57,263 nucleotides of DNA from a virus (taxonomy: Duplodnaviria; Caudoviricetes). The DNA is taken from positions 1-57,263 of the IMG/VR virus record IMGVR_UViG_3300042114_000075; one strand, written 5' to 3'. Of this stretch, positions 28,897 through 46,633 are shown piece by piece; within the stretch, counting starts at the first letter, position 1; the number at the start of each line of letters is the position of its first letter. Below the pieces are notes generated by a model, which saw nothing but the letters and a program-made list of their open reading frames with translations, did no database searches and was not told the origin of the DNA. A program made the translations under genes and the position numbers.

Positions 28897-29623
28897 AACC
28901 TATATAATACCACCAGACGTACTTAAAGTTATTGAAATAGCAAAAGCATCAAGTCCTGATGGTAATGGTATTAAACGTGCTAATTATCTGCTTAAAAACG
29001 GTGTGGTAACATATCATGTTCTTAAGCGTTTGAAGAATTTCTTCGACCATTTTGATGCCAATACGGAGGATAAGAACCAACATGCTCTTGCTGGTGGTGA
29101 ATTGATGCGTTCTTTCGTTGAGAGAACATTAAATGCCAACAGGGATGCTGTTAGAAGGTCAAAAACTGCCAGAGCAATGCCATACCAAACGCCAAGGCTT
29201 ACCGAAGCTAAAGCTGAGAAGAAAAAAGAAATTGTTAAAAATGCTATTGCAATCATTGTTGATAAGGACAATAAGATTTTACTATTAAAACGTGCTGATG
29301 TTAAAAATGGTTGGGGAAATAATCAATATGGTTTAGTTGGGGGTGGTATTGAAAAAAATGAGACACCGCAACAAGCAGTTGAAAGAGAAATTGAGGAAGA
29401 AACAGGATTGAAAATTAAAAAATTTCATAAGACCTTTAAAATTCAAAGAAATCCCAATACTATTGAATATGTATTTGCTTGTAGATATAGTGGTGAGCCT
29501 ATTGATGTTACATTGAATGATGAACATGTTAATTATGGATGGTATGATATTAGTGAAATTATTTATTTAGATACTGTTCCAAATTTAAAAGGATATATAA
29601 CACTATCTTTCACTAAATATTAG
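28874..29623 (+). CDS. NUDIX hydrolase with N-terminal extension
   Basis: Nudix box GGGIEKNETPQQAVEREIEEETGL; RLTEAK linker before the domain. Confidence 0.88.
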   Translation: MNQYLKDKTYIIPPDVLKVIEIAKASSPDGNGIKRANYLLKNGVVTYHVLKRLKNFFDHFDANTEDKNQHALAGGELMRSFVERTLNANRDAVRRSKTARAMPYQTPRLTEAKAEKKKEIVKNAIAIIVDKDNKILLLKRADVKNGWGNNQYGLVGGGIEKNETPQQAVEREIEEETGLKIKKFHKTFKIQRNPNTIEYVFACRYSGEPIDVTLNDEHVNYGWYDISEIIYLDTVPNLKGYITLSFTKY

Positions 29624-30005: not shown

Positions 30006-30245
30006 ATGAGTAGATTAGAAGACATTAGCTTACCATTCAGAGAATGCACAATAGCTAAGAACGATTACGATAATAATGACGCTTACGTTGCTGGACACCC
30101 TGACGCATTATCAACGGGTGATGAATTGGGTAAAGGTGAAATGAATGGCGAAGTTGGAAGTGCAACCGACATTAAAACCAGAAGTGTTTTATTGTCAAAA
30201 AATAGGTATAATAAAAACAGAGAATATAACGCTGGTACTGCATAA
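30006..30245 (+). CDS. Small hypothetical protein
   Basis: 79-aa ORF after promoter motif and A-rich leader. Confidence 0.65.
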   Translation: MSRLEDISLPFRECTIAKNDYDNNDAYVAGHPDALSTGDELGKGEMNGEVGSATDIKTRSVLLSKNRYNKNREYNAGTA

Positions 30246-30246
30246 T

Positions 30247-31119
30247 ATGTTGAATGAGCTAAAAATATTGTTTGATAACATCAAAACCTTTCGCCATTTA
30301 ATAACGGAGGCAGTAGGTCAGGAGGACATGGTTAAGTATATTGAAAACCATGAGCTTGTCTATATCTACTATGCTGGTGATGGAAAGAACCCAAGAGGTC
30401 AGCGAACAATAAGGCCGTATGTTTTAGGTACAAATACTTCTGGTCATTTGGTGATTAGAGCATGGCAGGAAAAAGGTAGAAGTGCTGACTTCATGAATGC
30501 TCCAACACGAGAGCCAAGTGTTGAACACGACTATTGGGATACCAGTAAGGGCAAAGTAGCTGGATGGCGTATGTTTAGACTCGATAAGATTGAAAAATTA
30601 TATCCTATAGGGAGAAAGTTTAACAATCCTGATGGTACTGTGATGATACCAGATAAATATAAAGAAGGTTCTGATGCTGACATACCTAATATTATTGCAT
30701 ATGTTTCAACTAAAACAGAGCCAATTACTGAACCTACACCGGTAAGCGGTACGACAAAAGCCGTTCCTGCAACATGGGGTGATAAAAATACTCGCAATAT
30801 TACAGCTAATGAGGTGACTATGTTACGTAACATAGCTAGGGATGTTTATAAGGAAAGAATTGGTAAATTTTATGTTGCTGTCAATGGTAATGGTGAATTT
30901 GTTGTAGTTCGTGACAAAAGTATTAACAAAGTACCAAAAAATGCTGTTGTGGGCAGTTTAACTGGTTTATATGATAAATTGGTTAATAAAAATGTTGAAC
31001 CAGACCAACAATTCTTTAAAGCAGCCAAGCAAAAATTTGACTCCGAAACTAAAAATCAACAGAAAAATACGGAACAACCAACAATTCCTTTTGAAAAGAA
31101 ATCTTTTTTTAAACCGTAA
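30247..31119 (+). CDS. WYL-domain protein
   Basis: VYIYY.G....GQRTIRPYVLG..VIRAWQ..GWRMFRLDKI; start ATG 30247 just after previous stop. Confidence 0.75.
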   Translation: MLNELKILFDNIKTFRHLITEAVGQEDMVKYIENHELVYIYYAGDGKNPRGQRTIRPYVLGTNTSGHLVIRAWQEKGRSADFMNAPTREPSVEHDYWDTSKGKVAGWRMFRLDKIEKLYPIGRKFNNPDGTVMIPDKYKEGSDADIPNIIAYVSTKTEPITEPTPVSGTTKAVPATWGDKNTRNITANEVTMLRNIARDVYKERIGKFYVAVNGNGEFVVVRDKSINKVPKNAVVGSLTGLYDKLVNKNVEPDQQFFKAAKQKFDSETKNQQKNTEQPTIPFEKKSFFKP

Positions 31120-31120
31120 C

Positions 31121-31128
31121 GTATTTAT
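31121..31128 (+). promoter_or_regulatory. GTATTTAT putative late promoter
   Basis: 13 nt before ATG 31142. Confidence 0.65.
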
Positions 31129-31141
31129 AAAAAATTATAAA

Positions 31142-31813
31142 ATGGCAGACAGGGTTAATTTAAACTTACTAAAGAATGAAATCGACAACCGTAAAAGGGA
31201 AAAGAATCAAATTTCAACAAATCCTAATGGTGTTTTCACTACAACGCCAACACGTGATGAGTTCCTGAGTGGATTACTTGAATCTTTTCAAACAGGTAGA
31301 GATACACATTCATCTGTATTAATTAAAGAAGTCGTAAATAAAGCAGCGGAGAAAATTGGTGAGCCTGCTCCAATGCGCAACACAGCAGTATTACCAATAT
31401 CAAATTCATCACCACAGCCACATAGAATATCAAATGTTGATATGTCGATAGAAAGGGAAGAACAATTATATATCGACCTTGAAAGAAAAAGAAAATCAAC
31501 AGTTATTGAATCAATCGAAGGTTTTAATAAGACACCACAGGTTGGTGCTCCTATGAATAATTATCAGCCACAATCTGCTCCAATGCAGTTAAACGAAGCA
31601 TATCTTACTGAAAACGTTAAGAAAATCGTCAATAATTATTTGATTGAGAATTTCGGACCAGTTGTTGAAGAAGCAATAAAGAGTACGATTCTTGAAATGT
31701 ATGCAGTTGAAAGGATAAAAGAAGTTCTGCAAGAAAATAAAGAACTGGTACGAACAGTAGTCTATGAAGTGTTTAAAGAAATACGTGAAAAACAAAATGC
31801 AAAGAAAGTGTAG
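31142..31813 (+). CDS. Hypothetical helical protein
   Basis: Start MADRVN at 31142; QLNEAYLTENVKK motif; helical C-terminus. Confidence 0.65.
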   Translation: MADRVNLNLLKNEIDNRKREKNQISTNPNGVFTTTPTRDEFLSGLLESFQTGRDTHSSVLIKEVVNKAAEKIGEPAPMRNTAVLPISNSSPQPHRISNVDMSIEREEQLYIDLERKRKSTVIESIEGFNKTPQVGAPMNNYQPQSAPMQLNEAYLTENVKKIVNNYLIENFGPVVEEAIKSTILEMYAVERIKEVLQENKELVRTVVYEVFKEIREKQNAKKV

Positions 31814-31869: not shown

Positions 31870-34800
31870 ATGACATACGATGAATTTAAGAATTTCAAAC
31901 CACAGTTTGAAGCAATAAGGTCTTTTGCTGGTAGAATAGAAGCTGCCAAACAATATTTTGGCAAACCAATTGGTAGTGGTAGTGGTAGAATGGTGTTTAG
32001 TGTTGACGATGACAAGGTATTGAAATTGGCAAAAAACGCTAAAGGCATTGCACAAAACGAAGCCGAAACAGGCATTGGGTACTATCATGATACTCAACAC
32101 ATTGTAACAAAAGTATTTGATTCTGATGATAATAACAGTTCGTGGCTGGTTTCCGAAAAGGGCAAAAAGGTAAATGAAAGAAGAATCAAAGAGTTAACTG
32201 GTATTCCAAGTTTAAATGATTTATACATGTATCTTAGAAATTTTACCGAGCAAAATAATGGCAAGAAAAAGATGTTTGGACAATCAGAAGAAATTGTTGA
32301 CCTTCTCAATGAGAATGAATTTGCACAAGATTTAGATAATTTTATTGCTAATTATAACCAATCTGCAGGTGATATGGGCAGACCAAGTTCGTATGGCGAA
32401 GTTCTTCGTGATGGTCAACCTTCAATAGTTTTAACTGATTATGGATTAAATGATGAAGTTTATAATACATACTATGCACCAAAGAGACAGGCTTATCGAA
32501 TGTATGAGTTATATAACTTTGCAGATGGCAATGATGATATACTTTCAGATGCTGGCGGTGGTATGGACATTAGACATGGCATGTGGGCGCAAATGCCTTA
32601 TGGCGTTGGTGATGGTGATGGGGTTATAAATGAAGAGTTTGTGCATTTTGTTTCAAACAGGGACAAATATCCCAATATTCCAATGCCAAGTATGCCTTAT
32701 ATTGTTGAAGGCTTCCACGACATTGTAAACAATTTAAAAGAAATACTTGATAATCATAAAGATAAGAAAGGTTTTTATAAAAATTTATTAATTCTCCAAG
32801 ATTATTTAATCAGACAAAAGTTTTACGATAGAGAGCCGTTGGCACTTGAAGAATATTCTATTGGTAAAAAAGAAGTTCTAAACGAAGTAACTTACGATAG
32901 AGAAACTGCCGATGAAATAGCCAAGGAAGTTGCTGCAAAGAAAGGACTAAGTGCTCCAAAATATATTGGTGGTGGCTTATTTGGATATGCGTATGATATC
33001 GGCAATAATTTAATATTAAAAATAACCAATGATAATAGTGAAGCGTTTGAAAACATGGAACTTCTTGGCAAACCATTAAAATATATTGCAAAGCCATATA
33101 ATGTTTTTCAAATTAAATCACTTTCAAGATTCACTGGTAGGATGTATGCTATCGTATTGGAAAAACTCAGAACCGATGAATCATCATTTGAAGCCAGAAT
33201 GAAAAGGCTAAAATATGTTTTTGAGAAAATATTGAAAGAAAGTATGGTTTCCGTTATTTTAACATACGTAAATGGAAACAATGGCTATGTTGATACTGAT
33301 AAAGTTGAAAAGTACCTAACTAAAAACCCACAGGATATGGAGTTCTTTAACGCATTGCTAAATATTGCCAAAGAACTGAAAAAATATGGTGTTGAAAGTG
33401 TAGAGTATACAAATCCAAAAAATCTTGGTTATACTAAAGATGGTGATATAGGACTTTTTGATGTCGGCTTTACTGATTTAACATTAAATCCAAAGCCAGA
33501 ACAAATTGATTTATATGAATTTGGTGGTGATTCGCTATATTCACACACAGATAGTATTGGTGGCGATGAATTTCCAACATACAATACAAATGATACTTCG
33601 CCTTCAATTCAGAATGACCTGAATGCCAATTCAGCCATGTATAACGAAGACCTTGATTATAATCGTGTTAGTGATGCCACTCAGGATGAATATGTTATTG
33701 ATGAAAGAGTTATGTCTTCAATGGCTGGTAGCAGTACTGTTGATGTTAAGAAGAAATGTAGATTAGCAGGCAATGGTAATACAAGTACTGCATGTAATCA
33801 GGGTGATATTAGTAATTTGAACATCAAACCATTAAGAGAAATAATTGCTTTAGATTCACCAATCGGTAGTGATGGATGGAAGTCGTATAAAATTATGAAT
33901 GATGGTCAACCTGTTGGTGAAATGGAATTGACAGCATATCATAATCATAAGAATTATATTCAGTTGAGTAAAATTTTCATAAATAAAGACCAAAGACATC
34001 AAGGATATGCCCAAGATGCAATGGAACTATTAATCAACTATGCCGATACCAATAAAAAAATATTGGTATTAACACCTGATAATGTTTGGGGTGCAAGTAA
34101 AGAAAAACTAAAAAAATGGTATAAGACATTTGGTTTTGTAATGAATAGCGGGAGAAATACTGATTTTACTACAAGAGAATCAATGTATAGACTTCCAAAG
34201 GGTATGAAATTTGGTCAGTCGTTACACGAAGAACTTCTTGGTACTATTGACTATGAAGATGAAGATTTTAAAGACCCGATTGAAGCATTTAAAAATCCCA
34301 AATCAATTAAAAATATGAAACCCGATATTAGGGGAGTTATTGATAGCAAAACTGGTGATTTTTATGTTGCAAATGCAGTTAATTTTTTACATGCTGCACT
34401 TAATTTTTGGCTTAATAATAAATTAGGATTTAATTATGCTACTGATTTTAATTTAATATATCAGAATCCGTTTAAAATTGTTCCAGTTCAAAGAGACGAC
34501 AGTACAAATGTATTTAAATTAGGTGAATTGTATACAAGTGCGTTTGATGCTGATGAAATGGAAAAACTGATGCCACAAATTCAAAAAGTTTTGGATATGG
34601 CTAAAGCAAAAAATCCCGAAATTGAATTTAGTACTGAGGTAATCGACACACCAACATATCCGTTGAGAGAGGATATTGATGCCAGTGAAGCATATAGGGA
34701 TGAAGACGGATTGCAAACAATTATTGACGGAAAACGAAATATTGCTGGCTTTGTAACGTATAACAGAAAAGATGTTATTCGGAAGTTGGAAGATACGGGA

Positions 34801-36792
34801 CTAAATATACTTCCACTTACTGGAAACCCACATGGGTTAGTAATTGTATTTAATGACAGAGGCAGAGAAAATGCCATGAAGTTATGGAAATACGCAACAT
34901 CTAAAGGTGGTTATTTTGAAGATAATACACCAGAAGAAGCACGTTTTATTGGTAAGATGCTCCAATATACTGATGATTCAATAAAACGTTTTATTCATAG
35001 AATATATGATGAGAACGGTCAAAGAAGAAAAAAAATATATAATGAAGAAAGTCACGTCATAAATATAAATGAATATCCACAACAAATGGTAAAGGCTTAT
35101 GGTAAAACTGGTCTATATGATAAGGAGGATATGGATGCTATTTTATCAGTAACTGGTGGAGACCCATATACTAAATGGATTGCAGATATTTTTTATTATT
35201 TGACAAATCGTTATAATAAAAAAACGGCTACGCCAACAAAATTAACTGAAAGGGACAGGCAAATTCTTGTGGATGCTCATGAAAATATAAAAAGATATGA
35301 TAAAAATATCATACCCATTCACGATTTATATGCCCAAGAACATAATGCACATCCATTAGATAAAATGAATGATTTGAGAACCAGAGAGTTAATTATTGAA
35401 AAATTAAGAAAATTTCCAAGCATTTTACTTCGTAATTTAAGAGCAGATATAAGAGTGGAAAGAGACCATTATGAGTTAAATGAGTTATTCCAAACAGTTA
35501 AAGAAATTCAAAATATTTTAAAACTATTGGAACAAGTAAAACCGGAAAATAGGGAAAAGATTTATAAGAAAGTGTTTTCAAGTGCCAACGATACTTTTGC
35601 TGGCATAAAGAAAAGGCTTGATGATACAACAATACCATATCTTTCACAGGGTTTGGAGCGTGAAGATATTATTAAAAAAGTAGATGATATGGGTAATGAA
35701 GCCGAAATTTTATATGATAACAATAATATTTTGGTTGTGAAGATTATGAGTGCAGAAGCAATGGGATACATTGGTTGTAGCTCACAATGGTGTTTTGCAT
35801 CAAATCCAGAACACTATTGGGACAATTATACAAATCATGGTTTTGCAACAATCGTGTTTAATTTTAATGAACCAGAAAGCGAACCAAATAGAATGGTTGT
35901 TGTATTGGAAGATGGTAGTGTTTATGGCATGTATAATGAATATATAGAAGATGGTTATCAATATCTTAGTGATATTGGTGTGAATGATGTGATAAATCAA
36001 GACGTTAAAGATTATACCGAAGTTGATAAACATTTCAGCAAAATTCCACGCATGGGTGAAGTGAAAAATTTCAAAGAAAGTGTTGGTGATAAATATGATG
36101 AGAAACGTTTCAATGTGAAACCAGAGTTCAGCGATTTTGAAGACAAATATTCTGATTATCTTGGTAAACAAGCACAGGACGAAGTGGTGTATGACGATAC
36201 TAATATGGGAGGTACGTTGAAAATTATAAAGAATCCCAAATCATTATCCAATATAGGTCCTAACGTCAGAGGTGTTATTGATAGGGAAGGAAATTTTTAC
36301 ACGGAACAAAAAGTATCAGGTAAAGTACATAATGCAATTCTTGGTGTTTTAGAAGATTTGAAATTAATATCGGAAAATCGGAATTGGACTGAGGTTTTAC
36401 CAGTTAATTTCATTACTGTGATGCGATTATATAATACTAATGACATATATCTCGGTGAATCGAACACGATGATGACACCAACGGAAGATAGAGACCCACA
36501 TTATTATGGTGAAGGATATTGGGAAACTTTTCCAACATATGAAGAAGCAGAGCCAGTCTTTCAGAGTTTTATGAATTCAGCAAAGGCTAAAAATCCAAGG
36601 ATTAACTTCATAAATAAAAACATTGTTTACACCGAATATATAAAAGAATATAATAATTCTGATAATGGTGTTGATGGCTTAGAAAATAGCAGTACTTTTG
36701 CAGCCGAAATTCCAGTAACTAATTCAAGTGAATTAATGAAAGAAGAAATTGAAATTAAATATAATATTAAAGAGGCAAGACAATTAATGTAA
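31870..36792 (+). CDS. 1640-aa polyvalent protein: two kinase-like domains, GNAT acetyltransferase, two NPKS domains, other unknown domains
   Basis: IGSGSGRMVF..VLKLAK..LTDYG; IGGGLFGYAY..ILKIT..PKNLG..LFDVG; KIFINKDQRHQGYAQ..KWYKTFGF; IGCSSQWCF domain. Confidence 0.75.
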   Translation: MTYDEFKNFKPQFEAIRSFAGRIEAAKQYFGKPIGSGSGRMVFSVDDDKVLKLAKNAKGIAQNEAETGIGYYHDTQHIVTKVFDSDDNNSSWLVSEKGKKVNERRIKELTGIPSLNDLYMYLRNFTEQNNGKKKMFGQSEEIVDLLNENEFAQDLDNFIANYNQSAGDMGRPSSYGEVLRDGQPSIVLTDYGLNDEVYNTYYAPKRQAYRMYELYNFADGNDDILSDAGGGMDIRHGMWAQMPYGVGDGDGVINEEFVHFVSNRDKYPNIPMPSMPYIVEGFHDIVNNLKEILDNHKDKKGFYKNLLILQDYLIRQKFYDREPLALEEYSIGKKEVLNEVTYDRETADEIAKEVAAKKGLSAPKYIGGGLFGYAYDIGNNLILKITNDNSEAFENMELLGKPLKYIAKPYNVFQIKSLSRFTGRMYAIVLEKLRTDESSFEARMKRLKYVFEKILKESMVSVILTYVNGNNGYVDTDKVEKYLTKNPQDMEFFNALLNIAKELKKYGVESVEYTNPKNLGYTKDGDIGLFDVGFTDLTLNPKPEQIDLYEFGGDSLYSHTDSIGGDEFPTYNTNDTSPSIQNDLNANSAMYNEDLDYNRVSDATQDEYVIDERVMSSMAGSSTVDVKKKCRLAGNGNTSTACNQGDISNLNIKPLREIIALDSPIGSDGWKSYKIMNDGQPVGEMELTAYHNHKNYIQLSKIFINKDQRHQGYAQDAMELLINYADTNKKILVLTPDNVWGASKEKLKKWYKTFGFVMNSGRNTDFTTRESMYRLPKGMKFGQSLHEELLGTIDYEDEDFKDPIEAFKNPKSIKNMKPDIRGVIDSKTGDFYVANAVNFLHAALNFWLNNKLGFNYATDFNLIYQNPFKIVPVQRDDSTNVFKLGELYTSAFDADEMEKLMPQIQKVLDMAKAKNPEIEFSTEVIDTPTYPLREDIDASEAYRDEDGLQTIIDGKRNIAGFVTYNRKDVIRKLEDTGLNILPLTGNPHGLVIVFNDRGRENAMKLWKYATSKGGYFEDNTPEEARFIGKMLQYTDDSIKRFIHRIYDENGQRRKKIYNEESHVININEYPQQMVKAYGKTGLYDKEDMDAILSVTGGDPYTKWIADIFYYLTNRYNKKTATPTKLTERDRQILVDAHENIKRYDKNIIPIHDLYAQEHNAHPLDKMNDLRTRELIIEKLRKFPSILLRNLRADIRVERDHYELNELFQTVKEIQNILKLLEQVKPENREKIYKKVFSSANDTFAGIKKRLDDTTIPYLSQGLEREDIIKKVDDMGNEAEILYDNNNILVVKIMSAEAMGYIGCSSQWCFASNPEHYWDNYTNHGFATIVFNFNEPESEPNRMVVVLEDGSVYGMYNEYIEDGYQYLSDIGVNDVINQDVKDYTEVDKHFSKIPRMGEVKNFKESVGDKYDEKRFNVKPEFSDFEDKYSDYLGKQAQDEVVYDDTNMGGTLKIIKNPKSLSNIGPNVRGVIDREGNFYTEQKVSGKVHNAILGVLEDLKLISENRNWTEVLPVNFITVMRLYNTNDIYLGESNTMMTPTEDRDPHYYGEGYWETFPTYEEAEPVFQSFMNSAKAKNPRINFINKNIVYTEYIKEYNNSDNGVDGLENSSTFAAEIPVTNSSELMKEEIEIKYNIKEARQLM
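36671..36700 (+). promoter_or_regulatory. Bacteroidota-type promoter embedded in 3' end of the 1640-aa gene
   Basis: TTG (36671-73), 19-nt spacer, TACTTTTG (36693-700) followed by CAGC. Confidence 0.45.
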
Positions 36793-36828
36793 TTTTGACC
36801 CATTGCGTATCTTTTGTGAGGTTCTATA

Positions 36829-36836
36829 CTATTTAT
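36829..36836 (+). promoter_or_regulatory. CTATTTAT late-promoter variant
   Basis: Upstream of ATG 36878. Confidence 0.5.
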
Positions 36837-36877
36837 GGTCATGGAAAATAAATGGAGTAATAACGAAATTAATCTAC

Positions 36878-39800
36878 ATGGGTAAAATAGAAGAATTTAT
36901 AGCAGTTATGCGTAGTAAGCCATTTATTAAATCATTAATCGATAATAAATCTGAGATTTTTGCTGTTGGTGGAGTTGTACGTGATTTAATATTAAATAAA
37001 CCGAATAAGGATATTGATTTAGTTGTGAGAAACAAGTCTATTGATGAATTAATATCTGAATTGGAAAAGTTTGGTAGGGTTGATGTTGTGGGTAAATCAT
37101 TCGGAGTTATAAAATTTATTGATTCAGAAGGAACTGATTATGATATTGCATTGCCACGACAAGATATAAAAAATGATGTTGGTGGATATCGTGGTTTTGA
37201 TGTGCAAAGTGATGCTAATTTATCTATTGGTGCTGATTTAAGCAGAAGGGATGCGAAGTTTAATGCAATGGCAATAAATTTAAATACTGGAAAATTTTTA
37301 GACCCATTAGGTGGATTAAAGGATATTGAAAATAAACAAACATCGGCAGCAAATCCACAAGCATTTTTAGATGACCCACTGAGGATGTTGAGAATGGTGA
37401 GTTTTAGTTCACGTTTTGGTTTCATAATTGAGCCAAGAACAATGAAAATGATTCAAGACACTGCCGAAAGAATAAAAGAGATAACACCCCAAAGAATTTT
37501 AATTGAGTTCGATAAGATAGTTAAAAAGGGAAATAAAAGGATTGCAGCACAACTGTTGAAAGACACTGGATTATTTAAACACATATTTGGGTTTGATATC
37601 CAGCAATCAACGATTGATAGGAGTCCGTTTGAAGACACACGTACAATGGGTGAATTTTTATATCTATTGACACGTCTTCTGCCAGACCCTGCAACATACT
37701 TTAAGACAAACATGAGGGGTGATATTGATACCTACAAAGAAATTAAAGCACTTAACATGGGTTTGTCAAATGAAAATGAAAACCCAATTGCTTTAAGGTC
37801 AGTTGCTTACAATATGTATGGAACATCACCACAGTCATTACAAAGTCAGATACTTCCTACTGCTCTTAGGACAGCAGCTGATGAATTATTGTCAGGTAAA
37901 TTTCCAAAGACACTTAGTGAAATGGCTGTAAATGGCAATGATTTGCTTGAAAAGGGTTTGAAGGGTAGCGAAATTGGTCAGGTATTAAAAAAAATGCTGT
38001 TGAAAGTATATTCAGGCAAAGTTGCTAATGATAAGGATGCTCTTTTGGCGTTACTTGATAACAATGACTTAGATGAAGCATTTGGCAGAAGAACAGATGA
38101 TGACGAAGAACTTGAAAGAAAATTATTAATCCAAAAGTATGACGAAATTGGAGAAATTGCTGGATATGTTTTAAGTGTTAATCGTGATGGGAAGAGGTAT
38201 TTGCCGATATTTATAAATCCAAAATCGCTTAAATATTTTGAAGCAAATGTTAAAGCACTTGGCAACATAAAAGGCAACATATATGTTGTATTGGAAAACG
38301 GTGGATTTATTCATGGTTATATTGCTGTTGGAGCTGGACTTTTTGGTGATAACAATGGAATTTATAATAATTATGATACCTATGCTACCCTAAACAGAAT
38401 TGATAAGACCGATACATTTGAAATAGGTGAAATGACGTTGGAAAGTGCTATTAATAATGATGCAATGTATAATGTTGATGCAATTTTGGATGCAATTAAA
38501 CAAAAGAATCCACAATATGACTACCTTAACACCAACAGAGAAATTGATAAAATAAAAGCAATGAGTGAAGGAGTTGGTGATAAGTATGCTGAAAAGAAAT
38601 TTGGAATACCTGATGCTGGTAGAGAGTTTGAAGACAAGTATCAACGACACAGATTAGTAATAGATGGTGAAGAACCATTTGGTTATGTAAGTGGCTTTAT
38701 TGACTGGAAAGGCAATATGTCACCAGAAAAAGTACCTGTTTATAAAAACCCTAAGTCGTTAATTAGGTTTGATTATGATGTAAGAGCAATTTCGGATAAT
38801 CAAGGCAATTTATATGTTGCACTGGTTAATGAAAGTTTTAATCATGGTGAAATGGCTGCACATATTGGTTTAGTTGGTGGTGATGATACTATATATGATA
38901 GAATCACTGACTACCTTTTATTGAACAGGGTTAAGGATAAAGATGTTTTTGGGTTCGCTGATAGTAGTGAAGAAGAATATAACCAGAGCAATGAAGACCG
39001 TAAACGTGTCATTGAATTACTTGGTCTGGTTGGTAGAAGAAATTCGCAATTCAAATTCATTCCTAAGTATTATGAGGAAATTACTGGTGATAAAAATATT
39101 GATGAAAGTCTTAATGAAACCATAAAGGGTGGTACTTACATAATGTATCATGGCAGTGACCATGCTTTTAATAAGTTCACCGATGAATTTGTTGGTGGTG
39201 AAAATGCTAATGACCAAGAGGGTGCTGGAATTTATTTCACAACTTCCGAAGAAGAAGCTAATAGGTATGGTAGATACATCTACAAAGTAGAATTGAAACC
39301 AAGAAAACTAATTGATGTTGCAAATAAAAGAGTTGTTTCAGCAACTAACATAGCCAAATTAATTAAAATGTCTCCCACATGGAAAGAAGATGTTTTAAAT
39401 TGGGATGAAAGTGTAATGAGAGGCTTGGCAGAAGCAATTAAAGGTATTTACAATTATTCTGACAACGAAAAAGACTTGTATCAGCAAATTGAGCATGACT
39501 TCTTTAGGTATCAGCCACGATTATATGTTCAAGGTATGACAAAATTGGGATTTGATGGTCAGTATATTAAAAAAGATTATGAAGGTATTACACATATCAT
39601 TGTTTATAATCCTGAAATCATTACCATACTTGAAAGCAATACAGAACAATTAAACGAAGAAGAAATGGGCAGAGTATTATATAGTGCCATCGTACTTGAC
39701 AACCAATCGAAGCAGAAACTAATTAAAGTGTTTAAGCCTATGATTCCAAAGGATTGGGAAATTATTGCACATCACATGACATTAAACATGGGTGCTATTG

Positions 39801-40924
39801 ATAAGAAGTTTGAACAGGATTTAGGCCGTGATATTGGGTTAAGTGTCATTGACTATGCTATAGACGATAAGGTTATGGCAGTTGGTGTTGAAGGCTATCC
39901 AACCAACAAAGGGAAAGCACATATAACACTTGCTGTAAATAGGGGCGATGGTGGCAAACCAATGATGTCAAATAATTTAACCGATTGGAAGCCATTAGAT
40001 TTCCCATTAAAATTAACTGGAACAGTAACAGAAGTAACGAATGCGCCAAAACTTAATGAAAATGTTGAAAATAAAAAAACAAAAGTTAATTATGGCTGTT
40101 TGATGACATTTCTTTCAATACCTAATTGGGAAAAAATTACATCAATCGTAAAACCAAAAGATTTATATGATAAAAAAGGATATGGCATTGAAAAAGAGCC
40201 ACATGTGACGATATTATATGGATTTCATGACGATGTTGATGTAAACGAAGTTTTTGAAAAATATAAGAACAATCAAGAACTGAAACCAATTGAACTTGAA
40301 TTAACAGGTATATCATATTTTGAAACACCAGAATTTGATGTAGTAAAATTTGATGTTCAATCCGATGTACTGACCAAAATGAATAAGATTATGAAAAGTT
40401 TTCCACATACATCGGATTTTCCAGATTATCATCCACATATGACAATTGCATATGTTAAAAAGGGACAGGGTAGCAAATATGTGAAAAAGTTCGAAAAAAA
40501 TAAAAAATTATTTGGAAACGAATTGGTTTATACCGAAAAAGAAAATAGTGAAAAAGAAAGTAGCGGAAAAGATGGCTATGTTTTAAATTTAGATACGTCA
40601 AACAGTATAAATGAATCACACGAAAAATCAAAATATACTAATACTAAGGATGCATTAATAAGGTCAAAATCAATTTCTAAAGAAATGAAAGAATTGATTG
40701 GTAAATATTTAATAAGTGGAAGCGAATATCATGAAGGTGGACATTTATATGAATTAAGTAAGCCTAATGCATTACGTGAAAAATCAACAAAGGCTAATGG
40801 TGTTAGCATGGGTGCAGATAAAAATGGTTTTTATGTTTATACTCATAGGGCAAGAAGCAAATCACACCCTACACCAGAGCAAATCACAATAAAAGAGATT
40901 GAATTTATAGAAAGTACTGGTTAA
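36878..40924 (+). CDS. About 1350-aa polyvalent protein: CCA-adding/poly(A) polymerase-family nucleotidyltransferase, two NPKS domains, ART-like domain, two 2H phosphoesterases, THRARSKS domain
   Basis: VGGVVRD..DIDL..DLSRRD..DDPLRMLR; YHGS..GIYFT..GFDG; HHMTL..HITL; EPHVTILYG..HPHMTIAY; start MGKIEE at 36878. Confidence 0.85.
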   Translation: MGKIEEFIAVMRSKPFIKSLIDNKSEIFAVGGVVRDLILNKPNKDIDLVVRNKSIDELISELEKFGRVDVVGKSFGVIKFIDSEGTDYDIALPRQDIKNDVGGYRGFDVQSDANLSIGADLSRRDAKFNAMAINLNTGKFLDPLGGLKDIENKQTSAANPQAFLDDPLRMLRMVSFSSRFGFIIEPRTMKMIQDTAERIKEITPQRILIEFDKIVKKGNKRIAAQLLKDTGLFKHIFGFDIQQSTIDRSPFEDTRTMGEFLYLLTRLLPDPATYFKTNMRGDIDTYKEIKALNMGLSNENENPIALRSVAYNMYGTSPQSLQSQILPTALRTAADELLSGKFPKTLSEMAVNGNDLLEKGLKGSEIGQVLKKMLLKVYSGKVANDKDALLALLDNNDLDEAFGRRTDDDEELERKLLIQKYDEIGEIAGYVLSVNRDGKRYLPIFINPKSLKYFEANVKALGNIKGNIYVVLENGGFIHGYIAVGAGLFGDNNGIYNNYDTYATLNRIDKTDTFEIGEMTLESAINNDAMYNVDAILDAIKQKNPQYDYLNTNREIDKIKAMSEGVGDKYAEKKFGIPDAGREFEDKYQRHRLVIDGEEPFGYVSGFIDWKGNMSPEKVPVYKNPKSLIRFDYDVRAISDNQGNLYVALVNESFNHGEMAAHIGLVGGDDTIYDRITDYLLLNRVKDKDVFGFADSSEEEYNQSNEDRKRVIELLGLVGRRNSQFKFIPKYYEEITGDKNIDESLNETIKGGTYIMYHGSDHAFNKFTDEFVGGENANDQEGAGIYFTTSEEEANRYGRYIYKVELKPRKLIDVANKRVVSATNIAKLIKMSPTWKEDVLNWDESVMRGLAEAIKGIYNYSDNEKDLYQQIEHDFFRYQPRLYVQGMTKLGFDGQYIKKDYEGITHIIVYNPEIITILESNTEQLNEEEMGRVLYSAIVLDNQSKQKLIKVFKPMIPKDWEIIAHHMTLNMGAIDKKFEQDLGRDIGLSVIDYAIDDKVMAVGVEGYPTNKGKAHITLAVNRGDGGKPMMSNNLTDWKPLDFPLKLTGTVTEVTNAPKLNENVENKKTKVNYGCLMTFLSIPNWEKITSIVKPKDLYDKKGYGIEKEPHVTILYGFHDDVDVNEVFEKYKNNQELKPIELELTGISYFETPEFDVVKFDVQSDVLTKMNKIMKSFPHTSDFPDYHPHMTIAYVKKGQGSKYVKKFEKNKKLFGNELVYTEKENSEKESSGKDGYVLNLDTSNSINESHEKSKYTNTKDALIRSKSISKEMKELIGKYLISGSEYHEGGHLYELSKPNALREKSTKANGVSMGADKNGFYVYTHRARSKSHPTPEQITIKEIEFIESTG

Positions 40925-41090
40925 TATTGATAGTTTACAAGAGAAAATTGAAAGGGATTTGGGTAAGGGGTTAACCAACAGTTAACAAAATCTTGAACAA
41001 TTTTACACATTATTTAACAATAGTTCTTTGAAATAATTAATTTGAAAAAAGTGATATTTTTAATTAATATATACTTATTTTAGCCAATGA

Positions 41091-41098
41091 GTATTTAT
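41091..41098 (+). promoter_or_regulatory. GTATTTAT putative late promoter
   Basis: Intergenic, about 90 nt before ATG 41186. Confidence 0.5.
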
Positions 41099-41185
41099 TA
41101 ATAAAATAATAATCAGCAATTTCATTTATGTTATAATTTTTCATGATTTTGTTGTTTTTATGGTAAATACTAAAAGTTTTGTGAA

Positions 41186-42091
41186 ATGACTACGGATAAT
41201 AAAATAAAAAGACTCCAAGTTTTTGATTTTGATGGAACACTTGCTAACACTGTTTCTCCAGAAGAAGGTAAACCAGCTTGGGAGAAATATTATGATAAGC
41301 CTTTTCCACATAAAGGATGGTGGAGTAAACCAGAAAGTTTAGACTTAGGAGTATTTGACATCAAAATGTTTCCAAGTTTGCTTAACCAGTTGAAACGTGA
41401 AGTTTCAACACCAGATACGTATGTGATAATTCTCACATCACGTCTGGAAAGATTACGTCCACAACTCAAAGCAGTTCTGGATGTAAATGGTGTACATGTT
41501 AATGCAATTGACATGAAGCACAACGAATTAACTAAAGGTGAAAAAATCCTGAAATATATCGACCATTTACCTGACTTGGAAGAAGTCAGCGTTTATGATG
41601 ATAGAGAAGGTGACATTGAATCATATGAAGCAGTTAGGGATAGAATACCAGAAGGTATTTCCTTCAACATATACATAGCTGATAATGGTAAGTTCGGGTT
41701 GGCAGAGAATAAGCTATTGAATATCATTAAGGAAGAAATCAAGAGCTTTACAGGCGATAATGAAATTTATCATGGCACACATACTGGTGCAGCTATTAGC
41801 ATTCAACGTGAAGGTGGTATGTGACTTAATACTGAACCATATATTTCATTTACCAGCAAACCACGTGTAGCATATTATTATGCTGAAATGAAAGGTGGTA
41901 CAGATAGAGCAGTTATTTTAAGAACAAAATTAACAAGCGACTTTAAGCAATCACCAAAGTTTAATAAAAAAGATGGTTATGAATGGATAACAACTCGTGA
42001 AATTCCGTCTAATGAATTAGAAGTTCAAACTAATCAGGGTTGGATACCACTAAACAATTGGGACTTTATCGACAAAGCAATAAAAAATTAA
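41186..42091 (+). CDS. HAD phosphatase (Swiss-Army-knife RNA-repair-like) fused to an ART-like domain interrupted by an in-frame TGA at 41822-41824
   Basis: VFDFDGTL..WWSKPESL..ILTSR..YDDR; then IIKEEI linker, YHGT..*..ISFTS..YYAE..YEW in one frame. Confidence 0.75.
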
Positions 42092-42098
42092 AATACCT

Positions 42099-42106
42099 GT
42101 ATTTAT
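42099..42106 (+). promoter_or_regulatory. GTATTTAT putative late promoter
   Basis: 15 nt before ATG 42122. Confidence 0.6.
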
Positions 42107-42121
42107 AATAAAATATTTACT

Positions 42122-42878
42122 ATGGGAAAGAAATCAACAAAAGAAGAATTTATATTGAATGCCGTAAATACACATGGTGAGAAATATGATTATTCAAATG
42201 TTGAATATGTTGGAAGTAAGATTAAGGTTATTATTATTTGTAAAGAACATGGCAAATTTCTACAAAGACCAAATGACCATTTAACAGGATATGGATGTAA
42301 AAAATGTCAGTACGATAAAACATCGAAAGAAAATAAATTCACTACTGAAAATTTTATCAGTAGAGCAAATAAACTACATGTTAATAAATTTGATTATTCG
42401 TTGGTAGTATATGATGGTTATGAAAAGAAAGTGAAAATTATTTGTAAAAAACATGGTATTTTTGAACAAACACCCCATAACCATTTGAGTGGTACTGGCT
42501 GTCATTCTTGTTGTGAGTCTCGTGGAGAAAAGAAGGTTGCTGAAATTTTAACAAAAAATAATATTGAATTTATTAGAGAATTTACATTCAGTGATTTAAA
42601 GGATAAATCTAACTTATTTTATGATTTTTATTTACCAAAGCACAAATTATTTATTGAATATCATGGAATTATTTATTGAATATCATGGAATCCAACATTG
42701 TACACCAGTTGACTTTTTTGGTGGAAGAATTGAATTTGTTGAAACACGAAAACGTGATGTGATTAAATATAAATATGCAATAAATAATGGTTATAAGATG
42801 ATGTGGATATTTAACATTCCACCCAATCACATAGATGAAACATTAATGAACAAGTTAAAAGAAATATCTGTTATATGA
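42122..42878 (+). pseudogene. Homing endonuclease (DUF723-like Cys/His repeats plus PD-(D/E)xK nuclease) frameshifted by a 22-bp duplication
   Basis: Two H..KYDYS.V.Y..KV.IIC..HG.F.Q.P..HL.G.GC repeats; SRGE..YDFYLP..IEYHG.QH. Confidence 0.85.
42645..42688 (+). repeat. Perfect 22-bp tandem duplication
   Basis: AATTATTTATTGAATATCATGG twice. Confidence 0.95.
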
Positions 42879-43684
42879 GTAAAATATCACCCAAATATTT
42901 ACCACAAATCAGTGCACCGATTGATGAAGTTTTAGCAAAACTTAGCGAAATTGATTGTGATTATGAGTATATCAAAGTAAATCCAGAAGATTTGAAAGCA
43001 TCCCAACCATTTACACTATCAGATGGCGTATATGATTCAATAAATGATGATATGAATCCAATTTGGATTGATATTGATTTAAACATTATTGATGGGCATC
43101 ATTCATGGGTTAAATCTCTACATGGTGGTATGTTATTGACCGCAGTTAAAATAAATGTCAATTTTAAAGATGCTTGTAGGTTGTTGAATAAAATTCAGGA
43201 TATCTATGAATACGAAGATGCACGTTCAGTTGAAGAAGTTGAATCACAAGACGCTATCAATTATTATGGCGGTGACGAAAATCAGTTCTTAAATAATCTG
43301 GAAGAAAGTAATGCTGAAATTCAACAAGAAATCCCAAGTAAAAACGAACAAACCGTAATAGCATACCGAAAAGAACCGATTAAGGAAAATTCTGCTGTTG
43401 GTAATTTCTTCACGCTTCAACCAATGGAAGGTTATGGCAAGTATCAGATTGAATTTGAAAACCTTCTTGACACACATGTGTTGGGAATGACATATAAAGA
43501 CGGTCAGCAGCCAGCCGAAATGCTTGCTAAAATATGGTTTCCGAATGTAAATTTCGAAAAATTGGGAGAACAATATAATATGCCACCCATCAATTTAAAA
43601 AACAAAGCAGTTGCGCAAAAAGCAATGAAAATGGGTTTTGATGGTATTAAATATGGCGATACATTAATTCAGGGATTAAAATAA
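42875..43684 (+). CDS. ParB/Srx-like N-terminal domain plus possible ART-like C-terminal domain
   Basis: VNPEDLKASQ..PIWID....IIDGHH; C-terminal GNFFTL..FENLLD..GFDGIKY. Confidence 0.6.
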   Translation: MSKISPKYLPQISAPIDEVLAKLSEIDCDYEYIKVNPEDLKASQPFTLSDGVYDSINDDMNPIWIDIDLNIIDGHHSWVKSLHGGMLLTAVKINVNFKDACRLLNKIQDIYEYEDARSVEEVESQDAINYYGGDENQFLNNLEESNAEIQQEIPSKNEQTVIAYRKEPIKENSAVGNFFTLQPMEGYGKYQIEFENLLDTHVLGMTYKDGQQPAEMLAKIWFPNVNFEKLGEQYNMPPINLKNKAVAQKAMKMGFDGIKYGDTLIQGLK

Positions 43685-44188: not shown

Positions 44189-46633
44189 ATGAACGGAAAA
44201 ATTAGAATATTATTCCACAATCTTGATGGTGCAGGCGTTAATTATTTTAGAACATTGACTCCTGCAATGGAACTTGAAAGAAATCATTCAGATGAATTTT
44301 ACGTAGAAATCAATCCTACGTTAGATTTTGCTGACCCAACAATTATTGATTATTTAAAATCATTTCATATTATACATTATCACCGTCAATTTCTTAATGA
44401 CCCAAAACAAATGGCTGAGTTGGCAAAAGAATTAAGGCAATCAGGAACTATCCTAATTGTTGATATTGATGACTACTGGCAGTTACATAAGAAGCACCCA
44501 TATTATCAAATGAGTCTTGAAAGTAATTTGGCTGCACCAATCATTGCAAACCTTAAAATTGCCGACTATGTTACCACAACAACAGATATTTTTGCTAATG
44601 AAATTCGTAAGGTAACTGGTAAAGATAATGTTAAAGTGTATTACAACTCTATTGACCCAATATGGATGAAACAATTTCAAAACAATTGGACTCCAGACCC
44701 AGATGGTCGTGTTAGAATTACATATATGGCTGGTTCTTGTTATGATGATGAGACTGAGATTTTTACTGAAAATGGTTGGAAATTATTTAAAGATTTAAAT
44801 AAAGAAGAGATGGTTGCAACATTAAATCCAGATAATAATCAGTTTGAATACCAAAAACCTACTGAATATATTGATGAACCATATTCTGGCGACATGTATT
44901 ATGGTAAAAATTCATTAATTGATTTTGCAGTCACACCCAATCATAAAATGTATGTTCACCCAACAAGACATTTAAATAGAAAGAGAATTAAATTTAATTT
45001 ATATCAAATGAGTGATGTTGAAAATTATGACTTAACTTTTAAAAAGAATTGTGAGTGGATTGGAAGGAATGATGAGTATATTGTAATTCCTGAACATATA
45101 ACAACTAATCAACATAAGGATAGGTGTGGTGAAATTAAAATTTTAATGACCGATTGGTTGAAATTCTTTGGTTTTTGGATGAGTGATGGTTGGACTACTA
45201 AGGATGAAAGTAATCAGGTGGGTATTTGTGGTTATAAAAAAATTGGTATTGAAACAATGGGTGAAATTAAATCACTGTTTGATAAATATGAAATAAGTTC
45301 AACATATACTAATGATGGTAATACGTTGAGAATTTTTAGTGTTCAATTATATAATTTTTTAAATAAATTTGGTTGTGCAAATGAAAAATATATACCAAGA
45401 GAAATTTTGAATTTGAGTAAAGAAAAATTAGAAATATTTTTAGAATATTACTTACGGGCAGATGGTCATATTGGAAAAAATGGAAGAAAAACAGCGTATA
45501 CTTCCTCAAAAATGTTGGCAGATAATTTAAATGAAATTGCGTTGAAATTGGGAGTATCTGCCACAATAAAAAATAGGGGCATTCGTAAGGGTGATAAATA
45601 TATTAAAGGAAGATTGATTAATCAAAGATATGATTCTTACGACATAAATTTTTATTTAAATTCAAGAAAGGGGAGTTTAACGCCAACATTACCCAACAAA
45701 AATATATTAATGAAAGAATATGTTGGTAATATTTATTGTGTAACTGTTCCCAATCATATTTTATATGTTAGAAGAAATGGTTCATCATATTGGTGTGGTA
45801 ATTCTCACATGGGTGATATTGAGCAGCTTGAAGGTGTAATGAATGTACTATCAAACGATTACGACCTGAAAGATAAGTTCAAAGTTATTGTTTCTGGTTG
45901 GGACACCGAAGGTAATACAACTGACATTACTTTCAACCAAGAATTTGGTACAGAACTTCAAAAGCGTAACCTATGGAATAAAGATGTTGTAAAAGCCATT
46001 AATAATTCAAGGGGTGATGTTGATAAAATACCAATTCCACAGGACTTGAAAGACAAATACCGTGGTGTTATATTCGACCAAAAGCAAAGGGACATTAAGT
46101 CAGAAGAAAGTGTTTATCTGGTATATGAAAACATCCTAACCGATAATCACCGTATGATTAAAAACCCAGATTATTTAGAATGGCTTGGTAATTTCGAAAG
46201 AAATGTACAATATGAAGATGAAGGTAATTTTGCAAGACGTTGGACTCAAAAAGCCAACACATATGCACAAGTACTTGATGAAACTGATATTGTAATTGCT
46301 CCGCTTGAAGACAATGCATTTAATCACATGAAATCAAACTTAAAACAGGTTGAATGTTGGACACGTAAGCTCCCAATTGTTTGCTCTGATGTTATACCAT
46401 ATAACGTACACGGCAGAAACATGGAAAACTGTGTGCTTATTCCGAATGAAAAGAATGCATTCAAATATTGGCATAAACAATTGAAAAAACTTATATTAGA
46501 TGCTGACCTAAGAAAGAGACTTGGTGAACAACTATATGAAGACTTCAAAGAAGAATATAATTTAGCTAACGTAACGACAAAGCGTGCTGAATTCTATAAA
46601 GAATGTATTGCCAAAACATTACAATTAGTTTAA
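44189..46633 (+). CDS. GT-B (GT4-like) glycosyltransferase containing an intein
   Basis: GVNYFR..P, VDIDDYW, ADYVTTTT, DIVIAPL..N.FN..KSNLK..E, PIVCSDV.PY. Confidence 0.85.
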   Translation: MNGKIRILFHNLDGAGVNYFRTLTPAMELERNHSDEFYVEINPTLDFADPTIIDYLKSFHIIHYHRQFLNDPKQMAELAKELRQSGTILIVDIDDYWQLHKKHPYYQMSLESNLAAPIIANLKIADYVTTTTDIFANEIRKVTGKDNVKVYYNSIDPIWMKQFQNNWTPDPDGRVRITYMAGSCYDDETEIFTENGWKLFKDLNKEEMVATLNPDNNQFEYQKPTEYIDEPYSGDMYYGKNSLIDFAVTPNHKMYVHPTRHLNRKRIKFNLYQMSDVENYDLTFKKNCEWIGRNDEYIVIPEHITTNQHKDRCGEIKILMTDWLKFFGFWMSDGWTTKDESNQVGICGYKKIGIETMGEIKSLFDKYEISSTYTNDGNTLRIFSVQLYNFLNKFGCANEKYIPREILNLSKEKLEIFLEYYLRADGHIGKNGRKTAYTSSKMLADNLNEIALKLGVSATIKNRGIRKGDKYIKGRLINQRYDSYDINFYLNSRKGSLTPTLPNKNILMKEYVGNIYCVTVPNHILYVRRNGSSYWCGNSHMGDIEQLEGVMNVLSNDYDLKDKFKVIVSGWDTEGNTTDITFNQEFGTELQKRNLWNKDVVKAINNSRGDVDKIPIPQDLKDKYRGVIFDQKQRDIKSEESVYLVYENILTDNHRMIKNPDYLEWLGNFERNVQYEDEGNFARRWTQKANTYAQVLDETDIVIAPLEDNAFNHMKSNLKQVECWTRKLPIVCSDVIPYNVHGRNMENCVLIPNEKNAFKYWHKQLKKLILDADLRKRLGEQLYEDFKEEYNLANVTTKRAEFYKECIAKTLQLV
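44738..45802 (+). mobile_element. Intein (355 aa) with LAGLIDADG endonuclease
   Basis: Starts CYDDETEIFTENGW, block B VTPNHKMYV, FFGFWMSDG and FLEYYLRADG, ends YCVTVPNH..WCGN followed by Ser; exteins rejoin as YMAGS-SHMGD. Confidence 0.92.

Follow-up and report, generated by a model that had tools for sequence, protein, structure and literature searches.

The cassette at positions 36878 to 42091 of the viral contig IMGVR_UViG_3300042114_000075 (Duplodnaviria; Caudoviricetes; 57,263 bp, hereafter the window) encodes a class II nucleotidyltransferase (NTase) fused to 2H domains, followed by a HAD phosphatase gene. Its closest functional analogue is probably the multifunctional Cca of the E. coli type, which unites an NTase and an HD domain. 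The HD domain of that enzyme reportedly has cyclic phosphodiesterase and phosphatase activities, which Yakunin et al. are said to have described in 2004. The cassette resembles E. coli-type Cca in that a class II NTase of the predicted CCA-adding type is joined with predicted activities that would open a cyclic phosphate and remove the phosphate, and the curated model of that enzyme (NF008137) matched the head of the NTase at 2.4e-33. The match covered only positions 2–207 of the 409 of the model, at 115 bits against an equivalog cut-off of 451 bits. Unlike E. coli-type Cca, the cassette lacks an HD domain (no HD family was found among the Pfam matches of the fusion protein, P0001, at E <= 0.1), and the same work would be done by other folds, divided between a 2H domain and a HAD enzyme encoded by a separate gene.

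Eukaryotic tRNA ligation systems and the phage and bacterial Pnkp systems offer further comparisons. The cyclic phosphodiesterase (CPD) domain of fungal Trl1 leaves 3'-OH,2'-PO4 ends, according to the accessible text of the source (PMC6379707). One of the two 2H domains of P0001 (2H-A) is modeled with the CNPase/CPD-type fold, and a domain resembling the NAD+ lobe of Tpt1 (HADC) is attached to the phosphatase in relatives, which recalls the pairing of Trl1 with Tpt1. Unlike Trl1, the cassette contains neither a ligase nor a kinase domain; unlike CNPase, whose catalytic domain comprises ~210 aa, 2H-A is minimal (131 aa); and unlike Tpt1, HADC is not preceded by an RNA-binding N lobe. The HAD domain, with its DxDxT motif, is structurally closest to the 3'-phosphatase domains of T4 Pnkp/Rnl1 and bacterial Pnkp1/Rnl/Hen1, and like the T4 system the cassette can be read as a phage-encoded answer to tRNA damage. 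In contrast to these systems, the HAD domain has no fused kinase or adjacent ligase, and its partnership with a CCA enzyme points to the rebuilding of ends rather than to religation.

P0001 also has the domain make-up of the polyvalent proteins (Iyer, Burroughs, Anand, de Souza and Aravind, 2017; PMC5512222), which are giant proteins with shuffled ART-PolyVal, 2H, GNAT, and kinase-like modules: it carries many unrelated enzymatic domains, including ART-PolyVal, that are shuffled in relatives. It differs from them in that the term "CCA" occurs 0 times in the main text of that paper, and in that no link to MuF, portal or packaging was seen here (no MuF or portal domain was found among the Pfam and PHROG matches of the open reading frames (ORFs) of the window). 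The second 2H domain (2H-B) is similar to Acb1 (PF23474; 7t26/7t27), which is its best solved relative, including the region of the PDYxPHIT motif, and it passes the Acb1 cut-off. Unlike Acb1, it scores higher with PF13563 (38.4 versus 31.7 bits) and is a module of a CCA-enzyme protein, not a free protein of ~150 aa. This likeness to Acb1 was found in the sequence of 2H-B, and 2H-A is not Acb1-like. A review of jumbo phages lists CCA enzymes, 2H and "Swiss-army-knife" HAD proteins for RNA repair (Iyer et al., 2021; PMC7824862); in its accessible part, the three families are treated separately, without a conserved NTase-2H fusion and adjacent HAD. Such an arrangement was not described in the accessible parts of the literature searched, which comprised neither the supplements nor Burroughs and Aravind (2016; NAR 44:8525). 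The present analysis contributes the CNPase-specific fold of 2H-A, the truncated domain that resembles a Tpt1 lobe, the likeness of 2H-B to Acb1, the recurrence of ART, and the upstream fusion.

The window is the only sequence available for this phage, and its CheckV completeness of 17% implies a genome of roughly 330 kb and hence a jumbo phage. The preferred reading, with a probability of about 60%, is that the cassette functions in tRNA 3'-end maturation and ligase-independent healing and is embedded in a polyvalent protein of this jumbo phage. P0001 is encoded by a single open frame of 1348 aa (36878..40924, + strand) with an ATG start, and 11 homologues align their own residue 1 to residue 1 of P0001. 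It contains seven modules, the limits of which were set by Pfam and PHROG matches and by BLAST against 70 homologues, among which the order and content of the modules are shuffled. As the original prediction had claimed, the NTase and a 2H domain with HHMTL and HITL are fused in one frame from the ATG that it named, this 2H domain resembles the tRNA-ligase CPD type, the next gene encodes a SAK-type HAD, and no RNA ligase was found in the window. The trio was thus placed correctly, but about half of the large protein was left out of that account, which missed the two repeats, the ART-PolyVal module, 2H-B, the C module, and an in-frame TGA that splits the gene for HAD and its attached ART-fold domain (the HAD-ART gene).

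The NTase of the predicted class II CCA type (36878..38077, + strand; aa 1–400) matched PF01743 (PolyA_pol head, E 3.5e-19) and PF12627 (PolyA_pol_RNAbd, 4.4e-13), both above the Pfam cut-off, and its tail matched PF13735 (tRNA_NucTran2_2, 27.8 bits versus a cut-off of 27). The best curated model was NF009814, the Bacillus-type "CCA tRNA nucleotidyltransferase" (142 bits, model positions 12–396 of 396, aligned to 8–393), compared with 80 bits for PcnB and 63 bits for the A-adding enzyme. CCA-adding enzymes in the PDB (1miv, 3h37) matched at ~1e-19, and poly(A) polymerases at 1e-13 to 6e-17. The head carries GGVVRDLILNKPNKDIDL and DLSRRDAKFNAMA, which are presumably motif A (GGxVRD...DxD) and motif B (RRD) and were aligned to 1miv and 3h37. 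In class II NTases, the choice between C and A is set by motif D, (E/D)DxxR, for which DDPLRMLR of P0001 aligned with DDPTRILR of the 3h37 chain and EDALRMMR of 1miv. These comparisons suggest a closer affinity of the NTase to CCA-adding enzymes than to poly(A) polymerases.

The 2H-A module (39650..40042, + strand; aa 925–1055) carries HHMTL and HITL at approximately aa 966 and aa 1015 of P0001. In an alignment of 49 sequences of this 131-aa module, H42 and T44 of the first HxT motif were invariant and H91-I92-T93 nearly so. An AlphaFold2 (AF2) model obtained from the same alignment had a predicted local distance difference test (pLDDT) value of 94.5 and was superposed by VIA-align on the catalytic domain of mouse CNPase (2xmi) with Z 13.0 and a root mean square deviation (rmsd) of 2.2 Å over 127 of the 131 residues. 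Other 2H families set against it, namely Acb1-like proteins, Deinococcus CPDase, Arabidopsis Appr>p CPDase, LigT, Usb1, and the viral 2-5A phosphodiesterases, reached Z 5.4–7.4 (Acb1-like, 7.1–7.4), leaving CNPase with a lead of 5.6 Z. The top 40 Foldseek matches were CNPase/RICH, and the best matches among viral models were giant-virus proteins named "RNA ligase" (765–771 aa), which are read as Trl1-like from their length and name. PF08302 was precomputed on some homologues, and P0001 itself gave no PF08302 match. A search of the PDB with a sequence profile of 2H-A was uninformative, bringing up nothing but spurious rows for Myb and endonuclease III (E >= 0.038), so that the fold search was needed. 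The family comprised 2,152 cluster representatives at E <= 1e-3, in which the domain is either stand-alone (~125 aa) or located at the extreme C-terminus of long proteins. On the basis of its model, 2H-A is a CNPase/tRNA-ligase-CPD-type 2H domain and a predicted 2',3'-cyclic phosphodiesterase.

The adjacent 2H-B module (40055..40573, + strand; aa 1060–1232; HVTIL and HMTIA) matched PF13563 (1.7e-9, 38.4 bits), Acb1 PF23474 (1.5e-7, 31.7 bits versus a cut-off of 27), PF02834 (7e-5), and TIGR02258 (2.9e-5, under its cut-off). The only PDB matches of its profile at E <= 0.1 were Acb1 entries (7t26, E 8.8e-4; 9q2g, 0.064). By sequence, 2H-B appears to be a LigT/Acb1-like branch of the 2H superfamily that is different from 2H-A. 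A joint alignment of 2H-A, 2H-B, and C fragments stacked the modules on each other and was dropped in favor of separate alignments.

The next gene encodes a HAD_SAK or Pnkp-like 3'-phosphatase domain of 212 aa (41186..41821, + strand; the gene extends to 41824). PF10307 (HAD_SAK_1) scored 28.9 bits against a cut-off of 25.6, and the domain also matched phrog_415, annotated as "polynucleotide kinase". HAD motifs I–IV, represented by D14, D16, and T18 (DxDxT), T84/S85, K117, and D139, were invariant or nearly so in alignments of 15 and 113 sequences. The AF2 model (pLDDT 90.4) was most similar to Pnkp1 (4xrp, Z 13.7, rank 1), followed by the T4 Pnkp phosphatase (5uj0, Z 13.5, rank 2; 1ltq, Z 12.9, rank 4). 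The modeled fold therefore ranks, at face value of these scores, as closest to the Pnkp 3'-phosphatases, tied with an unrelated HAD enzyme.

An in-frame TGA at 41822–41824 (+ strand) interrupts the HAD-ART gene, and the frame is the same on either side. After the TGA, it runs on to 42091, where a 67-aa ORF forms the in-frame remainder of the second domain, HADC (41756..42091, + strand); the read-through product would comprise 301 aa (P0072). Approximately 45 database proteins of ~300 aa matched this product over 96–100% of its length without a stop, the best being 83% identical, and the site of the TGA is occupied by Lys or Arg in the proteins and by AAA or AAG in the DNA of relatives. TGA is an ordinary stop codon in this contig, in which it ends 6 of the 36 open frames of at least 100 aa on the + strand, including that of HAD. 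A reading of TGA as tryptophan or another sense codon was ruled out by the Lys/Arg residues of relatives, by the normal use of TGA as a stop, and by the lack of any other TGA-split gene. Among 42 tRNAs that were located in two pieces of one relative (G002), none was identified as a suppressor. The tRNA arrays of that relative hold 42 genes in 17 kb, and in two of its pieces ARAGORN called tRNA-like genes with undetermined two-base anticodons (L081, 8680–8750; L082, 2629–2703). In a second sequencing run (X2), a contig of 970 nt has identical letters at the TGA, which makes an assembly error unlikely; run X1 may be the source of the contig, and run X3 had no coverage of this site. Because the TGA is present in the second run, the homologues are uninterrupted, and TGA is a normal stop, the phage lineage carries a truncated HAD-ART gene with the HAD part intact and the C-terminal domain split. 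The 212-aa HAD part resembles the commoner HAD-only form of ~190 aa.

In the HADC region of the model, residues 190–281 were superposed on residues 92–180 of Tpt1 from T. kodakarensis (9ld3) with Z 9.9 and an rmsd of 2.3 over 82 aligned residues; this was the sole solved structure matched, and the match covers the NAD+ lobe only. The ESM Atlas model of a HADC homologue (P0073) matched a cluster of RNA 2'-phosphotransferase (PF01885) with a template modeling (TM) score of 0.64. Sequence matches to these families were few and weak: of 13 members, six matched ART-PolyVal, at E 0.013 or above, and one matched PF01885 (E 0.17), and hhalign gave no signal between HADC and the ART-PolyVal module (probability 0.7%). 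In Tpt1, the N lobe is the RNA lobe that recognizes the 2'-phosphate (PMC12678800). HADC, which occupies ~110 aa behind the HAD domain, is missing this lobe and for this reason is called an ART-fold domain, on the evidence of its model, and not a Tpt1.

The linkage of the trio was followed in 80 viral loci of IMG/VR that were retrieved via the HAD alignment and on which the modules of P0001 were mapped; some of these loci are near-duplicates, so that the counts are not independent and overstate independence. HAD was present in 79 loci, 2H-A in 61, NTase in 54, 2H-B and R2 in 20 each, and more rarely R1 (15), HADC (13), the C module (11), and ART (2). 2H-A was located just upstream of HAD in 61/80 loci, with a gap of at most 700 nt in 51 of these 61, and NTase was upstream in 54/80. 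Co-occurrence in related phages, named in the original prediction as a means of checking it, is thus borne out. Loci that contained HAD only were nearly all distant HAD homologues (<= 39% identity) or cut by a contig end. NTase and 2H-A shared one frame at 25 of 54 loci and were separate genes at 29, and a 1510-aa frame of one relative (G004; locus L028, 6038–10567) contained ART-PolyVal, NTase, 2H-A, and HAD together. This frame is the fullest natural fusion among the 80 loci. The trio also persists without the polyvalent extras, with NTase frames of 531–749 aa and with P0026 and P0023 of ~780 aa. Each of 17 related records contained exactly one PF01743 match, the cassette NTase. Repeated fusion and fission with a kept order is a classical sign of a shared pathway, and the order of the trio, having been kept through both, argues for such a pathway. 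These results support NTase, 2H-A, and HAD as a conserved, ligase-independent unit.

Four complete relatives gave 59, 36, 65, and 53 tRNA matches. CCA was not encoded in 39 of 43 tRNAs that ARAGORN called in pieces of two relatives, with an encoded CCA being sought at the three terminal positions of the call and at the three that follow it. An RNA ligase of the Rnl1, PF09414 or RtcB type was present in seven of nine relatives that were at least 90% complete, and two relatives with the cassette (G002 and G009) harbored no ligase of these families. No ligase was found inside the 20-kb cassette loci of relatives, and five relatives gave no match to the Tpt1 family PF01885. In the window, RNA ligases were absent from the Pfam matches of 36 + strand ORFs and from six-frame profile searches with PF09511, PF09414, and PF01139, no polynucleotide 5'-kinase was detected by Pfam scans of the ORFs, and no tRNA gene was found within the 57,263 bp. 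The description "without a ligase" in the original prediction is therefore true of the cassette, but not of the phages, as most of the near-complete relatives encode one elsewhere.

Under the preferred reading, for which the substrates and the order of the steps are inferred, 2H-A would act on truncated tRNAs, opening the 2',3'-cyclic phosphate at their 3' end to yield a 2'-phosphate and a 3'-OH, the Pnkp-like HAD would strip the remaining phosphomonoester, and the class II NTase would rebuild CCA, as well as adding CCA to the many CCA-less tRNAs of the phage. Ligation would be unnecessary, since it is the terminus of the molecule that is damaged. The everyday task of the NTase is very probably the addition of CCA to the phage's own tRNAs, and its fixed company of two end-cleaning enzymes argues for repair besides maturation. 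The damage may be inflicted by host defenses, through clipping of the acceptor end by a host nuclease. Cas12a3, a CRISPR nuclease, cleaves the CCA tails of tRNAs, and the authors of the 2026 paper on it call phage countermeasures unknown (PMC12851939). The toxSAS enzymes pyrophosphorylate the CCA end of tRNA, as stated in the accessible part of the source (PMC11559606), and such an end may be a plausible substrate for a 3'-phosphatase. The original prediction of a unit for CCA-end healing agrees with the linkage and the folds, with the addition of CCA to the phage's own tRNAs being at least as well supported; as a name for the whole, "healing kit" does not hold, since the protein also has ART-PolyVal, 2H-B with its likeness to Acb1, the two repeats, and the C module, and in relatives is fused to the upstream kinase-like/GNAT protein.

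Several observations weigh against this reading. The addition of CCA to phage tRNAs explains the NTase without repair, and it was relatives, rather than the 17%-complete record itself, that supplied the tRNA and ligase counts. The functions of the trio, and the activity of every domain, are predictions from sequence and models; all NTase scores fall under the NCBIfam equivalog cut-offs (NF009814, 142 versus 290 bits), the unrelated HAD enzyme 8a0c (Z 13.2) lies within 1 Z of the Pnkp rows, and the HAD-ART gene is truncated in this phage, with its HAD part intact. Cas12a3 is a RuvC nuclease that releases ACCA, so that the discriminator base is lost, and the paper reports no cyclic-phosphate end, a term that occurs in it 0 times (PMC12851939). 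With this chemistry, the cut neither needs the 2H/HAD pair nor is mendable by a CCA enzyme alone, and no bacterial defense that leaves a cyclic phosphate at the tRNA 3' end was identified in the literature searched. Furthermore, 2H-B is nearest to Acb1 in sequence, and Iyer et al. (2017), in the accessible part of the paper, proposed that the 2H domains of polyvalent proteins are RNases or degraders of nucleotide signals (PMC5512222).

In an alternative that is considered unlikely, the NTase only matures CCA-less phage tRNAs, and 2H-A, 2H-B, and HAD are co-delivered counter-defense enzymes that destroy nucleotide signals, such as cyclic oligonucleotides, 2',3'-cyclic nucleoside monophosphates (2',3'-cNMPs), 2'-5' oligoadenylate-like molecules or ADP-ribose cyclic phosphates. 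It accords with 2H-B passing the Acb1 Pfam cut-off and having Acb1 as its sole PDB profile matches at E <= 0.1, with ART-PolyVal as a mark of polyvalent proteins and modules shuffled among the 70 homologues, with the signal degradation proposed for polyvalent-protein 2H domains in the accessible text of Iyer et al. (2017; PMC5512222), and with CCA-less tRNA sets that give the NTase an independent job. However, the companion of NTase and HAD at 61/80 loci is 2H-A, which is CNPase-like (Z 13.0 versus 7.1–7.4 for Acb1), HAD is closest to phosphatases of polynucleotide ends, the trio is kept in minimal proteins that are devoid of the polyvalent extras, and random co-delivery would not preserve the gene order at most loci.

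The ligases of seven of the nine near-complete relatives, of the Rnl1, PF09414 or RtcB type, allow for a different role, namely that 2H-A and HAD heal breaks in the anticodon loop that are then sealed by ligases encoded elsewhere in the phage, in the style of T4 Pnkp/Rnl1 or Trl1, with the NTase belonging to a shared "tRNA care" regulon. The resemblance of HAD to the phosphatase of ligase-partnered Pnkp and of 2H-A to a Trl1-like CPD, together with the ligase-coupled repair in which 2H and SAK-HAD are placed by the accessible text of the jumbo-phage review (PMC7824862), fits this role. Nevertheless, it is quite improbable, given that the cassette occurs in the complete relatives G002 and G009, in which none of the three ligase families was found, that the cassette loci contain no ligase and the window no detected 5'-kinase, and that 2H-A is covalently joined to the CCA enzyme in 25/54 loci and never to a ligase; in the accessible text of Iyer et al. 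(2017), these 2H versions were never seen with ligases (PMC5512222). It is highly improbable that the locus remodels the 3' ends of mRNA or host RNA instead of tRNA, with the transferase being a poly(A) polymerase or some other enzyme that tails RNA. The PF01743 head covers CCA enzymes and poly(A) polymerases alike, the latter matched in the PDB at the E-values given above, and sequence cannot give specificity with certainty; yet CCA models score higher and are aligned across the full 396 positions including the tail, the tRNA_NucTran2_2 tail is present, and this is the sole class II NTase in phages with 36–65 mostly CCA-less tRNA genes.

A more far-reaching version of the preferred reading is rather improbable. 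The locus might encode a full pathway for tRNA 3' ends that needs no ligase and is assisted by NAD+, with the CPD/Tpt1 logic of eukaryotes having been re-wired in the phage. In such a pathway, 2H-A would turn the cyclic phosphate into a terminal 2'-phosphate, the HADC and ART-PolyVal domains would remove it by ADP-ribosyl transfer from NAD+, with the HAD domain standing in for the RNA-binding lobe of Tpt1, 2H-B together with HAD and a nearby NUDIX enzyme would clear the ADP-ribose cyclic phosphate, and the NTase would rebuild CCA. If this were true, the kit, possibly co-delivered with the DNA, would be a "yet unknown means of resistance" to defenses that disable tRNA tails, such as tail-cutting nucleases or the toxSAS enzymes that pyrophosphorylate the CCA end. 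Any role for ART-PolyVal, 2H-B, the repeats, the C module or the Tpt1-lobe-like domain is likewise a matter of inference.

Among the accessory modules of P0001, all on the + strand, the ART-PolyVal module (39101..39667; aa 742–930) matched PF18760 at aa 751–915 (32.0 bits versus a cut-off of 31.2) and phrog_25279 (3.2e-21), and its YHGS, IYFT, and GFDGQ were kept in three sequences. Of 17 related records, 6 had a PF18760 match within the NTase frame or adjacent to it. The repeats R1 and R2 (38165..39097; aa 430–555 and 560–740) belong to a repeat module of which BLASTP detected two further copies in the upstream ORF, and for which there was no Pfam match and no usable ESM Atlas match. The C module (40607..40921; aa 1244–1348) matched phrog_3666 (1.3e-10) and had 24 invariant columns across nine sequences; its profile gave nothing under E 0.37 against the PDB. 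The upstream ORF (31870..36792, + strand; 1640 aa) is a multi-domain protein with GNAT matches at aa 665–760 and no match in the PDB. By eye, it contains two glycine-loop/lysine motifs of a protein-kinase-like appearance (aa ~35–55 and ~365–385), which are without Pfam support. Its residues 1–325/620 align from residue 1 of many NTase-bearing homologues, for example with residues 1–993 of P0002. Since residues of the upstream ORF form the N-terminus of these homologues, the two ORFs are one protein in relatives, with a length of up to ~2,300 aa.

In the window, every long open frame is located on the + strand, and the GC content is 0.28–0.36. PHROG and Pfam matches included a family B DNA polymerase, an SNF2 helicase, baseplate gp25-like and wedge proteins, tail-spike-like proteins, and homing endonucleases. 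A PADLOC scan yielded no meaningful match, and a promoter and terminator scan of 36700–42200 was uninformative (26 sites versus 29.4 expected). The nearest relative found (G001, locus L001) is a 128-kb fragment with a completeness of 39%, and, at a greater distance, there are complete jumbo phages of 322–365 kb. Between the P0001 and HAD genes, contigs of three metagenome runs break or branch at a stretch of ~35 bases (40968–41002) with alternative flanks and a raised word depth (58.7 versus ~12 in run X1), which suggests a short sequence that is repeated elsewhere in the phage or the community; the 28-base graph-junction stretch (40968–40995) occurs once in the window.

Upstream of the cassette, a NUDIX hydrolase (28874–29620, + strand; 4.2e-20) is encoded at a distance of ~7 kb. 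Some homologues (P0036 and P0059, precomputed Pfam) are NTase proteins that carry a fused NUDIX domain, and as judged from its family the hydrolase could process ADP-ribose or nucleotide by-products. Two ORFs at 30145–31813 (+ strand; 30145..31119 and 30971..31813) overlap by 149 bases in different frames, which may represent a frameshift or a programmed overlap. Downstream, a HNH/homing-endonuclease-like gene (42122–42878, + strand; phrog_559, 1.3e-43; treble-clef zinc finger) appears to be split into two overlapping frames (42122..42679 and 42621..42878) in a frameshift-like manner. It is followed by a 269-aa ORF (42875–43684, + strand) that matches only phrog_2859, the function of which is not annotated. 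This ORF contains "IDGHHSW", a pattern without Pfam support that is presumably ParB/sulfiredoxin-like, and a C-terminal "MGFDGIKYGD" that resembles the GFDGQ strand of the ART-PolyVal module. An 814-aa glycosyltransferase-like ORF (44189–46633, + strand) matches LAGLIDADG_3 at aa 417–478 and, at aa 182–294, PHROG families annotated as thymidylate synthase and ribonucleotide reductase; these matches may be inserted, intein-like segments.

If the NTase only matures tRNAs and the other modules degrade signals, P0001 would be an ordinary, large polyvalent counter-defense protein. tRNA is a favored target of bacterial immunity, and the conserved module of a CCA enzyme and end-cleaning enzymes is a testable candidate for a countermeasure against defenses that are directed at tRNA tails. 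For enzymology, the locus is also a source of very small domains of the CNPase and Tpt1-lobe types. The cassette, as interpreted here, would extend phage RNA repair by a branch that is independent of ligases and stands next to the T4 Pnkp/Rnl paradigm.

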